From assembly GCA_964291405.2 (NCBI GenBank), contig OZ219926.1, positions 3,328,001 to 3,392,000 on the forward strand: a DNA stretch of 64,000 nucleotides. The letters run 5' to 3'. The DNA comes from Thermodesulfobacteriota bacterium (lineage in GTDB: Bacteria > Desulfobacterota > Binatia > Bin18). The translations under genes were made by a program, and so were the position numbers. The notes below the pieces were generated by a model that saw only the letters and a list, made by a program, of their open reading frames with translations, had not been told where the DNA came from and did no database searches. Shown here piece after piece: positions 186 to 2,769 of the stretch (positions within the stretch are counted from its first letter, which is position 1; each line of letters starts with the position of its first letter).

Positions 186-1070
186 CTATAGCGGCTGCGG
201 TTCCGAATGGATGGGAGGCTGTGCCGCAGGCGGGTCGGCCGGGCCATCCAGGTGGACATCCTTTTCGACGGTTTTTTCATCCGGGAGTTCCGTGCGTTCC
301 AGCACGAAGGGTTTCCCCCGTCCCGTCGGGTTGGCCACAAACACATCATAGCTGCCGGTCTCCAGGACAAAGCGATGTTCCTGGCCGGGCTCACTGCGGG
401 CAATCTCTTTTTGCGTCCCGGCGGCGTAAATGATGACCTGAGTCAGCGAACTGACATCTTTTCCGGCCAGCCGGGGATGGACCAGGAGCTCGCCACGTAC
501 ACGCTCGCGCAGCGTCAGTTCCCGCAGTCCGCCCCGGAGGAGCTCAATATCGCGCCACCACTGGCTCTGGGGTGGGACGGCGACCTTGACATCGACCAAG
601 CCCGGTTGCGCCAGGATGATCTCTCCGCTCAGGAACTCTCCCAGCAGTTCGTTGGACACGCCGTCATAGACCTCAACGCCGAGGCCGATATCCTGGCCCC
701 TTTTATCCAGGACGTTGACCTGGAGGGCCGCGACTTCGCTGAGGATGACCGTACTGGTCCGACCGGACCGAACCAGCACGCGCTCGCGCGAGACCGTTCC
801 GCCCAGAATGTCGAGTTCAACGCGATAGGACCCGGGCGGCAGCGAGGCGGGTGTGTTCAGGGGTGTTTGGGTGATGAGCGTATCGGGTGTGAGGCTATAG
901 ATTCTGGCCGAGAGCCCACCCGGCTGAGCCTGCTCTCCCGGAGTCTGGATGAGCAGGTTGCCATGGGGTTCGGGCTCGGCCGCAGGCTGCGCGATACAAA
1001 CGTGGCTAAAGAGAAAAAAGCAGCTCAGCAGAACGGCCAGGAGCCACAGCGCTTGTTTATATCCAACCAT
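186..1070 (-). CDS. Exported hypothetical protein, probably repeated beta-sandwich modules
   Basis: 294-aa ORF; N-terminal K + hydrophobic stretch + CIA-Q cleavage-like site; recurring LPPGSYRV / LETGSYDVFV motifs; Pro-rich tail. Confidence 0.7.
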   Translation of the reverse strand: MVGYKQALWLLAVLLSCFFLFSHVCIAQPAAEPEPHGNLLIQTPGEQAQPGGLSARIYSLTPDTLITQTPLNTPASLPPGSYRVELDILGGTVSRERVLVRSGRTSTVILSEVAALQVNVLDKRGQDIGLGVEVYDGVSNELLGEFLSGEIILAQPGLVDVKVAVPPQSQWWRDIELLRGGLRELTLRERVRGELLVHPRLAGKDVSSLTQVIIYAAGTQKEIARSEPGQEHRFVLETGSYDVFVANPTGRGKPFVLERTELPDEKTVEKDVHLDGPADPPAAQPPIHSEPQPL

Positions 1071-1092: not shown

Positions 1093-1914
1093 CTATTTTT
1101 CCAGCGGGAGGTCCTCGCGGTTGCCCCATTCGGCCCAGGAGGCATCGTAGTTGCGCACCTTGTCAAAACCGAGTAGCCGAAGGGTGAACAATCCGTGCGC
1201 CGCACGGATACCACCCTGTCAATAGGTGACGACTTCACACTCGGGGCTGACCCCGACCTGCTCAAACATGGGGCGGAGTTCGTCCGCGGATTTGAACTTT
1301 TTTGTCTTGGGATCAACATAGTTGAGCCATTCGAGATGGACCGCGCCAGGAATCCGCCCGCCCCGCTTGGTGCCCCGGTTGTTCTCGCCGGTCCACTCCG
1401 CATCCGAGCGCACATCGAGCAGCACGGTATCTGCGGTAATGGCCCCCTGGACCTGCTCCCAGCGGGCGATCATGTCTTCATTGGCCTGGGGCGTAAAGGT
1501 CGCTTTGGCCGGACGGGACGCGATGTTTGTCACCGGCCGCCCTTCGGCCAGCCAGGCGTCCCAGCCGCCGTTCAATACTCTGACATTGGTATGGCCGTAA
1601 TAGTGCAGCGCCCACCAGAACCGGGTCGCGTACAGTCCGCTGAAGCCATCATAGGCGACCACCGGCGTATCATCCCCAATGCCCATTTCCCCCATTGTCT
1701 GAGCAAACTGGTCCGGGCCCATGATATGCGGCGCGCCTTCTTTTTCCTTGAAATAATGGTGGCCGCGCACGGGAATCGCCCCCGGAATATGGGCGCGGCG
1801 GTAGGCTTCGCGATTATCACAATCGACGACTCGCAGGTTGTCGTCCTGGAGATGCGCCGCGAGCCATTGGGTCTCTGCCAGCATGTCCGGTCGGGTATAG
1901 CCGTGGTCTGTCAT
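1093..1914 (-). CDS. Two-domain rhodanese/sulfurtransferase (SseA/TST family), probable selenoprotein with Sec at TGA 1219-1221
   Basis: Rhodanese motifs [28 protein letters not shown]; reading through VVTY-TGA gives [44 protein letters not shown] (1093-1095), the family C-terminal signature. Confidence 0.9.
1181..1217 (-). promoter_or_regulatory. Putative bacterial SECIS hairpin
   Basis: mRNA after UGA: c-AGGGUG-gu-AUCCGUGC-ggc-GCACGGAU-uguu-CACCCU; 6-bp lower and 8-bp upper stems, G-first apical loop 18 nt after UGA. Confidence 0.75.
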
Positions 1915-1926
1915 TATTCGCCTCCT

Positions 1927-2769
1927 TTACTGTCCCGAGTAGCGGGGCGTCCGTTTTTCCATAAACGCCCGCACCGCTTCTTTGGCATCCTGGGATCGAA
2001 TGCAGACCGCTTGGCTCTTGGCTTCCAGCAGGAGTCCGTCACGGACGGAAAGATATTGGCTGGCGTCAATCGCCCGCTTGGCAGCGCGCACGGCTAGCGG
2101 CGGTTGGCTGGCCAACTGGTCTGCCAGGTCCATCACGGTCGCCTCTAATGCCTCCTCGTCAACGAGCCGTTCGGCCAGACCGATACGATAGGCTTCTTCG
2201 GCCTCAATCTGCTGTGCGGTGAAGATGAGTTCTTTGGCCTTGCCGGTGCCGACCAGACGGGGCAGGCGTTGGGTTCCGCCCAGGTCGGGGATGAGGCCGT
2301 AGCGGTGCTCCAGCAAGCCCAGCCGGCTCCCGCGGGCGACCACCCGGATATCGCAGGCCAGCGCCATCTGCAGGCCCGCGCCTAAAGCATAGCCCCGGAC
2401 CGCGGCAATGGTCGGGTAGGGGGCTTCTTCAAGCCAGGTGAAGGCTTCCTGAAAACCCTGGATAATGGACACCATGGGGTCATCGTCGGCCACCACCTTG
2501 GGTATGGGCTCATGTTCGTGTCCGTTAAAGACCACGCCGCCAAAGGCAGAGGTGTCGATGCCGGTTGAGAAGGCGCGGCCTTCACCAATCACGACAAGCG
2601 CCCGTAGCTGGTTCTCGCGCGCATGTTCTTCGGTGGAAAGCGTGTCGCCGAGTTCCCGTAACGCCTGCCACATCTGGGGCGTCATGGCGTTCAGCTTTTC
2701 CGCCCGGTTGAGCCGCAGCCAACCTATATGTCCGACCTGTTCATAACGTACCGCTTCATCTTGCGTCAT
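1927..2769 (-). CDS. Enoyl-CoA hydratase/isomerase family protein
   Basis: LNRAEKLNA, GRAFSTGID, IAAVRGYALGAG, GLIPDLGGTQRLPRLVG. Confidence 0.92.
   Translation of the reverse strand: MTQDEAVRYEQVGHIGWLRLNRAEKLNAMTPQMWQALRELGDTLSTEEHARENQLRALVVIGEGRAFSTGIDTSAFGGVVFNGHEHEPIPKVVADDDPMVSIIQGFQEAFTWLEEAPYPTIAAVRGYALGAGLQMALACDIRVVARGSRLGLLEHRYGLIPDLGGTQRLPRLVGTGKAKELIFTAQQIEAEEAYRIGLAERLVDEEALEATVMDLADQLASQPPLAVRAAKRAIDASQYLSVRDGLLLEAKSQAVCIRSQDAKEAVRAFMEKRTPRYSGQ

Follow-up and report, generated by a model that had tools for sequence, protein, structure and literature searches.

Does a rhodanese gene that meets a TGA codon exactly where its catalytic cysteine is expected end at that codon, or is the TGA read as selenocysteine (Sec)? 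The question is raised by a locus near one end of a window of 64,000 nt (the whole stretch of DNA that was analysed) of contig OZ219926.1 (GCA_964291405.2), from a Thermodesulfobacteriota bacterium of the Binatia lineage. The called minus-strand ORF (1914..1219) has 231 aa and a C-terminal VVTY, and is followed by TGA at 1221-1219. We consider it highly probable (roughly 0.9) that this is a selenoprotein gene for a cytoplasmic two-domain (SseA/COG2897-like) rhodanese, in which the UGA at 1221-1219 codes for a catalytic Sec; from the evidence presented below we infer the actual insertion of selenium, the chemistry, the donor and the acceptor. The locus would represent a well-supported instance, found throughout a genus, of a sulfurtransferase in which selenocysteine takes the place of the catalytic cysteine.

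A Sec form of the COG2897 sulfurtransferase was already predicted 20 years ago. Of the 15 new selenoprotein families in the Sargasso Sea selenoproteome (Zhang, Fomenko, Gladyshev 2005, PMC1088965), one is the 'Rhodanese-related sulfurtransferase' (COG2897), represented by 3 sequences, and the SECIS of the COG2897 Sec sulfurtransferase is figured in the same paper. The corresponding entry of the GOS study is 'Sulfurtransferase COG2897', with 1 sequence (PMC2398784). A 2026 review distinguishes five Sec forms of rhodanese-domain proteins, of which 'form 4', with the motif UxxG, is taken from the Sargasso paper (PMC13188914). The remark in the original prediction that Sec rhodaneses had been reported from metagenomes is borne out by these Sargasso (PMC1088965) and GOS (PMC2398784) entries. 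As far as the entries describe them, the Sargasso and GOS proteins resemble that of the window in combining PF00581 with Sec in U-x-x-G (here U-Q-G-G), in having a small hairpin of bacterial type just 3' of the UGA, and in that Cys homologs are far commoner. They differ in that the two reports comprise 3 and 1 metagenome sequences from unknown organisms, whereas here the Sec form is fixed across a genus of Candidatus Binatia represented by near-complete genomes. The window's protein fits the 'form 4' UxxG COG2897 entry, and from motif and domain we infer that it belongs to the same lineage. No biochemical study of a Sec rhodanese was found among the titles returned by a literature search on rhodanese selenoproteins. 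What is new in the present analysis, judged from sequence, is a predicted Sec rhodanese fixed across a Candidatus Binatia genus, together with an apparently repeated switching between Sec and Cys.

Gene structure and rhodanese fold

The coordinates of the locus are collected in Table 1. The original prediction had described a 41-residue extension of the frame beyond the TGA, up to a TAG at 1093 that lies 22 nt before the next gene, and these positions were confirmed: the next ATG is at 1070, which leaves a gap of 22 nt after the rhodanese TAG.

Table 1. Features of the predicted Sec rhodanese locus and candidate loci elsewhere in the genome. Positions are those of the window, except where contig C3 is named.
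Feature	Position	Strand	Remarks
Putative exported protein gene	186..1070	(-)	Downstream, 22 nt after the TAG; N-terminal hydrophobic helix, all-beta body
Predicted Sec rhodanese gene	1093..1914	(-)	Two-domain rhodanese-type sulfurtransferase, 273 residues, U at 232, TAG stop 1095-1093
41 codons 3' of the UGA	1096..1218	(-)	Active-site loop, helix 236-247, strand 253-256, helix 259-263 (model secondary structure)
Whole two-stem hairpin	1181..1217	(-)	Lowest-energy fold; lower stem weakly supported
Conserved putative SECIS core	1192..1208	(-)	7-bp stem, 3-nt loop GGC, motif TCCGTGCGGCGCACGGA
UGA, residue 232	1219..1221	(-)	Heads the active-site loop U-Q-G-G-I-R; column of the catalytic Cys of homologs
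Ribosome-binding site AGGAGG	1921..1926	(-)	6 nt 5' of the ATG at 1914; read off the sequence directly
Crotonase/enoyl-CoA hydratase gene	1927..2769	(-)	Upstream; stop 12 nt before the rhodanese ATG; ECH_1 E 8e-48
TGA-spanning candidate loci (examples, L146-L161)	contig C3: 687626-688168, 1888270-1888815, 3630387-3630920, 2513010-2513555		
TGA-spanning candidate loci (examples, L146-L161), continued	contig C3: 4182361-4182903, 4664532-4665137, 1785835-1786443, 4698367-4700070		

The protein obtained by reading through the TGA is matched by Pfam PF00581 (Rhodanese) in two stretches (E 3.7e-38), and both of the tandem rhodanese homology domains are present (PF00581 twice; TM 0.92 over 276 columns to 1uar). 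Its alignment with two-domain sulfurtransferases of known structure extends over the whole length (1uar, E 1e-48; 3hzu, E 3.5e-43). In both of these the TGA column is the catalytic Cys, and no gap falls across the active-site loop, so that the loop has the same length. The claim that the called ORF ends, with VVTY-TGA, at the catalytic Cys position of two-domain rhodaneses thus agrees with the aligned 1uar, 3hzu and Cys homologs, and the proposed active loop U-QGGIR is likewise supported, U232 sharing its column with the catalytic Cys of the homologs. The N-terminal domain has no catalytic Cys, its equivalent stretch being A-Y-D-G-F-S-G.

The structure model, which was built on 11 aligned sequences, reached a pLDDT of 91.9 and contains a strand at 227-231, then U232, the loop and a helix at 236-247. 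Because U232 lies between this strand and this helix, a product of 231 residues would be devoid of the active-site loop and of the last helix-strand-helix. The top structural match of the model is the T. thermophilus rhodanese 1uar (TM 0.92). The same two-domain fold is present in this Thermus thermophilus protein and in M. tuberculosis SseA/CysA (3hzu, 3aax, 3hwi), with TM 0.87-0.92 and E 1e-48 to 2e-36; rhodaneses of the 1uar/3hzu type carry the loop C-R-I-A/G-E-R, with Cys, whereas the loop of the predicted Sec rhodanese is U-Q-G-G-I-R. The model of E. coli SseA (NCBIfam NF008557; PDB 1urh) is matched over its full length (residues 12-272 against positions 6-278 of 281). Every NCBIfam match to the rhodanese was below its cut-off, including this best one, the 3-mercaptopyruvate sulfurtransferase model NF008557 (147.1 bits vs a cut-off of 250). 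The protein is therefore not an equivalog of that family, and the donor specificity of SseA is not transferable to it.

The original prediction had also anticipated that standard annotation would truncate the protein. This is what the databases contain: 64 of the best 70 matches are short forms of 200-262 aa (nearly all of 230-235 aa), whose coverage of the protein is 83-85%. Those that were checked terminate at V-[VI]-T-Y, and two of the short forms are called 'sulfurtransferase' by NCBI. Public protein sets would then mostly carry the enzyme as an inactive-looking fragment of 231-232 aa, a systematic annotation error that the present reading corrects.

Conservation of the TGA codon and of the downstream frame

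The search for orthologs took in 40 relatives. An ortholog with exactly one TGA was present in every same-genus genome (24/24) and in 1 genome of the same order, with identity down to 67-68%, and the paralogs found in the searched relatives at ~40% identity had no in-frame stop. In a set of 25 orthologous sequences, among them that of the window, the TGA column is identical, the terminal stop is common to all, and the 41 residues after the TGA are 85-100% identical. Their variable nucleotide sites after the TGA fall mainly in third codon positions (32, compared with 8 in first and 4 in second positions), which is the pattern of a translated region 3' of the TGA. The homolog check suggested with the original prediction had the outcome foreseen there: the catalytic column has TGA in close homologs and Cys in others.

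A sequencing or assembly error was ruled out as the source of the codon, since the TGA occurs in 25 related genomes and in 50 public loci and no difference is listed at 1219-1221. Contigs from two DNA runs and one RNA-library run were aligned with this region, and none of the differences listed for them falls at these three positions; the listing leaves out 8 differences. The possibility raised earlier that reads might show TGC or TGT was thus examined through these contigs, which have no listed difference at the codon, and through independent assemblies, which have TGA.

The hairpin downstream of the UGA

The fold of lowest energy was computed for 81 nt around the TGA. It places a two-stem hairpin with a G-first apical loop exactly at 1181-1217, where the original prediction had put it, although the lower stem is poorly kept among relatives. 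The lower stem pairs 1217-1211 with 1187-1181, and the upper stem pairs 1209-1202 with 1198-1191 (8 pairs) below an apical loop GGC at 1201-1199. Many orthologs have lost the outermost A-U pair of the upper stem, which leaves a core of 7 pairs (1208-1202 with 1198-1192). This core stem begins 11 nt after the UGA, and its loop begins 20 nt after the U of UGA. The bacterial SECIS criterion, in the wording of the definitions given in PMC1088965 and PMC9312934, is a stem-loop that directly follows the UGA and whose small apical loop includes a G; the rhodanese has a 7-bp stem and a GGC loop starting at the distance just given. The folding energy is modest (z = -2.0), and 6/200 shuffles fold as well.

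When 43 distinct Sec-form sequences were compared, 99.7% of the cells of the 7-bp upper stem were paired. The core has two compensatory changes, from C-G to A-U and from C-G to G-C (L108, L111), and apart from these one G-C pair has become G-U. The lower helix is paired in 84.7% of cells, and one of its pairs is broken in 21/43 sequences. For the hairpin as a whole, the covariation score is the same as the mean of the shuffles (0.074 vs 0.074; 197/500 shuffles reach the score) and only 3 pairs change on both sides; covariation is thin because the hairpin is nearly invariant. As the score does not exceed that of the shuffles, the case for the hairpin rests on the invariance of synonymous sites and on the contrast with the Cys forms. 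In the 25 orthologs, synonymous third positions are invariant in 6/6 codons of the core vs 1/33 outside it (Fisher p = 2e-6, a value that is overstated because related sequences are not independent). The same I-R-A-A peptide is encoded by other codons in four Cys forms, which do not form the hairpin, and the hairpin was absent from all 9 Cys forms that were folded. The hairpin overlies codons for conserved active-site residues, so part of the nucleotide conservation reflects constraint on the protein. With regard to the conservation of the hairpin that had been put forward as a check, the core is kept across Sec forms and absent from Cys forms. The Binatia Sec rhodanese and the Chloroflexota forms described below have this hairpin in common, which is new here.

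Selenocysteine machinery and other candidate selenoproteins

The genome of the window (4.95 Mb, 3 contigs, 97.5% complete) contains selB (393 bits, cut-off 242), selA (598 bits) and selD (308 bits), all above their curated cut-offs. A tRNA-Sec that adjoins selA was detected with 69 bits, above cut-off, and ARAGORN assigned it the anticodon tca. All four genes selA, selB, selC and selD, whose presence the original prediction had made a test, were therefore found. Furthermore, selB was above cut-off in 24/25 relatives that bear the TGA form, the exception being a genome that is 65% complete. TGA terminates 1036/2851 long open frames in the genome; it is an ordinary stop there, which rules out a recoded genetic code with TGA as a sense codon throughout as the explanation. 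As a separate observation, SelD forms the C-terminal part of a 755-residue ORF (C3:38325-40592) whose N-terminal 317 residues match Pyr_redox_2, that is, a fused SelD.

We also scanned the genome for an in-frame TGA located between two coding-like segments and followed by a hairpin. The scan gave 157 candidates, which were ranked by hairpin energy, and the rhodanese came at rank 2. When TGA was read as U, Pfam found a domain running across the TGA in 15/20 of the other candidates examined (examples in Table 1): 8 belong to the UGSC family (PF24696), 6 are CMD/AhpD-like (PF02627) with CxxU, and 1 is a Rv2258c-like methyltransferase. In 14/15 of these domain-spanning genes the distance from the U of UGA to the start of the hairpin loop is 17-23 nt, and the corresponding distance in the rhodanese is 20. 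From these candidates, we consider that the host genome uses selenocysteine widely and is, by prediction, selenoprotein-rich. A single search of the full-text literature for Binatota and selenocysteine yielded one paper, which concerns methane cycling in sponges, and none on selenoprotein richness in the lineage. Two candidates of the scan, L142 and L143, belong to no family and are probably false; L148 and L153 had no Pfam match. GrdB-like UxxC candidates are present in the genome as well, and in one of them (L156) the GRDB match stops 3 residues short of the U.

A Sec-type formate dehydrogenase, sought as a positive control for the use of Sec, was not found, as no TIGR01553 match in the genome reaches the cut-off or contains a stop. 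Apparently, formate dehydrogenase, the commonest bacterial selenoprotein, is not in Sec form in this selenoprotein-rich genome. Three molybdopterin oxidoreductases without in-frame stop (C3:2874969-2877074, 1757475-1759520 and 3818423-3820444) match the formate dehydrogenase alpha model. The genome also encodes two Cys-type two-domain rhodanese paralogs (C3:4095325-4096146 and C3:2652629-2653477), with 38-39% identity and no stops.

Sec and Cys forms across lineages

A scan of public genomes, limited to one genome per species, provided 79 loci, and the record titles put the close ones in Candidatus Binatia. At the catalytic column, 50 of them have TGA, 26 a Cys codon, and 3 a codon for Gly or Ser. 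Of the TGA loci, 42 are of Binatia type, 7 carry the label Chloroflexota or Dehalococcoidia (45-57% identity) and 1 is labelled Planctomycetota. TGC occupies the same column in four Dehalococcoidia/Chloroflexota relatives of the Sec forms, and among the entries of the protein database there are full-length Cys forms that are 73-74% identical. Sec and Cys forms that are 74% identical thus coexist in nature, and they offer a natural test of the effect of selenium on sulfur-transfer chemistry. In a phylum-wide draw of 401 genomes, six more TGA forms were found (L051-L056) in genomes of another family of the phylum; they have 32-33% identity and the TGA in the same column. The hairpin of this distant TGA lineage is not the same but is similarly spaced from the UGA, and it shows a compensatory change of its own; a sister genome carries a Cys form (L059). 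A separate SECIS, as predicted there, would fit a separate origin of Sec in that lineage.

The tree was a quick maximum-likelihood one of 94 rows with many long branches, and it was used for the interleaving of Sec and Cys forms only, not for direction or donor. Both forms are interleaved on it, with at least 9 changes, 5 of which are forced by well-supported branches. A clade of 60 rows with 99% support unites Binatia and Chloroflexota forms, and includes Sec as well as Cys. Binatia-type copies (70-83% identity) are also present in MAG records titled 'uncultured Enterobacteriaceae', 'Methylomirabilota' and 'Deltaproteobacteria' (L078, L082, L085, L086, L091, L093, L097 and L099); since these copies fall inside the Binatia clade of the tree, the record labels look like placeholders or mislabels.

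Decoding of the UGA and proposed function

How the TGA is decoded has to be weighed against two simpler accounts. If it were a true stop, the locus would yield a 231-residue product or be a decaying pseudogene, and the downstream frame would be chance or a leftover. Gene callers do end there, as 64 of the best 70 database matches do, and TGA is a normal stop in the genome; nevertheless, a frame left over by chance is hardly compatible with 41 downstream codons that are conserved as protein at 85-100% in 25 orthologs, vary at third positions and lead to a common terminal stop. Moreover, Cys homologs read through the same column, and a protein ending at residue 231 would be deprived of the active-site loop along with three elements of secondary structure. 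We regard this account as extremely improbable. Slightly less so, but still very unlikely, is a read-through of the UGA without Sec, by a near-cognate tRNA or with Cys when selenium is scarce, which would give in effect a Cys or Trp rhodanese. The residue inserted is not distinguishable computationally, and close homologs carry a working Cys at this column; what speaks against such a read-through is the complete Sec system of the genome, a hairpin that is fixed at synonymous sites and lost in Cys forms, and the existence of at least 15 other TGA-spanning genes, most of them in known selenoprotein families (8 UGSC, 6 CMD with CxxU). The Sec system, the constraint on the hairpin and the other TGA-spanning genes together point to SelB-dependent decoding.

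A further alternative accepts the selenoprotein and assigns it to selenium trafficking instead of sulfur, as an Se-Se carrier that feeds selenophosphate synthesis for a large selenoproteome. Cys rhodaneses are able to bind selenium in vitro. The many selenoproteins of the genome, the unusual SelD with its fused pyridine nucleotide-disulphide oxidoreductase domain, and the two ordinary Cys rhodanese paralogs, which could cover sulfur transfer, would be in agreement with this role. The genes selD, selA and selB are however unlinked to the rhodanese, 0.3 to 3.3 Mb off on the same contig, its neighbours include no selenium-related gene, and there are relatives of the same class with selB and no Sec rhodanese; all in all, we see this role as unlikely. 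A bolder version, to which we would give a similarly small chance, is that of a dedicated Se (or mixed Se-S) carrier supplying the fused SelD of these sponge-associated Binatia, rich in predicted selenoproteins, the gene and its hairpin having moved between Binatia and Chloroflexota as a Sec cassette.

Under the preferred reading of a Sec sulfurtransferase, decoding would follow the usual bacterial pathway, in which SelB with Sec-tRNA(Sec) binds a hairpin 3' of the UGA and delivers selenocysteine. SelB carrying Sec-tRNA(Sec) would bind the core at 1208-1192 (loop GGC) as the ribosome decodes UGA-232, selenocysteine would be inserted at 232, and translation would run on for 41 further codons to the TAG. 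Since the active-site loop and the remainder of the catalytic domain are made up of these 41 residues, a product ending at 231 would have no activity. The selenolate would most likely take a sulfane sulfur from thiosulfate, a persulfide or 3-mercaptopyruvate, and the resulting Se-S intermediate would hand the sulfur to a thiophilic acceptor, as the persulfide of a Cys rhodanese does. By analogy with the Cys enzymes, sulfane-sulfur transfer via an Se-S intermediate is the most likely chemistry. Considering that two Cys-type paralogs are kept in the genome, a specialised role is probable for the Sec form.

Genomic context and representation in public runs

On one side of the rhodanese there are genes for the crotonase, an LLM-class oxidoreductase, an epimerase, a penicillin amidase and an amidohydrolase; on the other side, inositol monophosphatase, deoxyhypusine synthase-like, TPR, acyl-CoA dehydrogenase and GidA-family genes. 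No sulfur or selenium gene was found among the annotated neighbours. Co-transcription of crotonase, rhodanese and exported protein is plausible from the sequence, as the genes are separated by 12 and 22 nt and neither interval has a terminator-like site on the minus strand; among the RNA-library contigs, which are short, none bridges a boundary between the rhodanese and its neighbouring genes. The crotonase adjoins the rhodanese in the closest relatives only. Of all neighbours, it is the gene of the downstream exported protein that is retained most often; it lies beside the TGA form in 32/42 Binatia-type loci, down to 67% rhodanese identity. This protein belongs to no Pfam or NCBIfam family, and its nearest Atlas clusters are hypothetical and commonest in Binatota among the members with known phylum. 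Its model (pLDDT 83.7) matched only generic tandem beta-sandwich proteins when compared with the PDB, with TM of 0.3 or less, so that no function was drawn from it.

The public runs that contain the stretch are mostly labelled as sponge or marine metagenomes. A 324-nt contig from a metatranscriptome library corresponds to 1099-1418 with zero differences and spans both the TGA and the hairpin; as RNA libraries may contain DNA, it is taken as evidence of presence and not as proof of transcription. Finally, in metagenome contigs the summed depth rises sharply over positions 1143-1229 of the window, the part with the active site and the hairpin (169.7 vs 37.3 elsewhere in run X4). Many short contigs of 90-95% likeness match only this interval, and rhodanese genes of other members of these communities may account for them.
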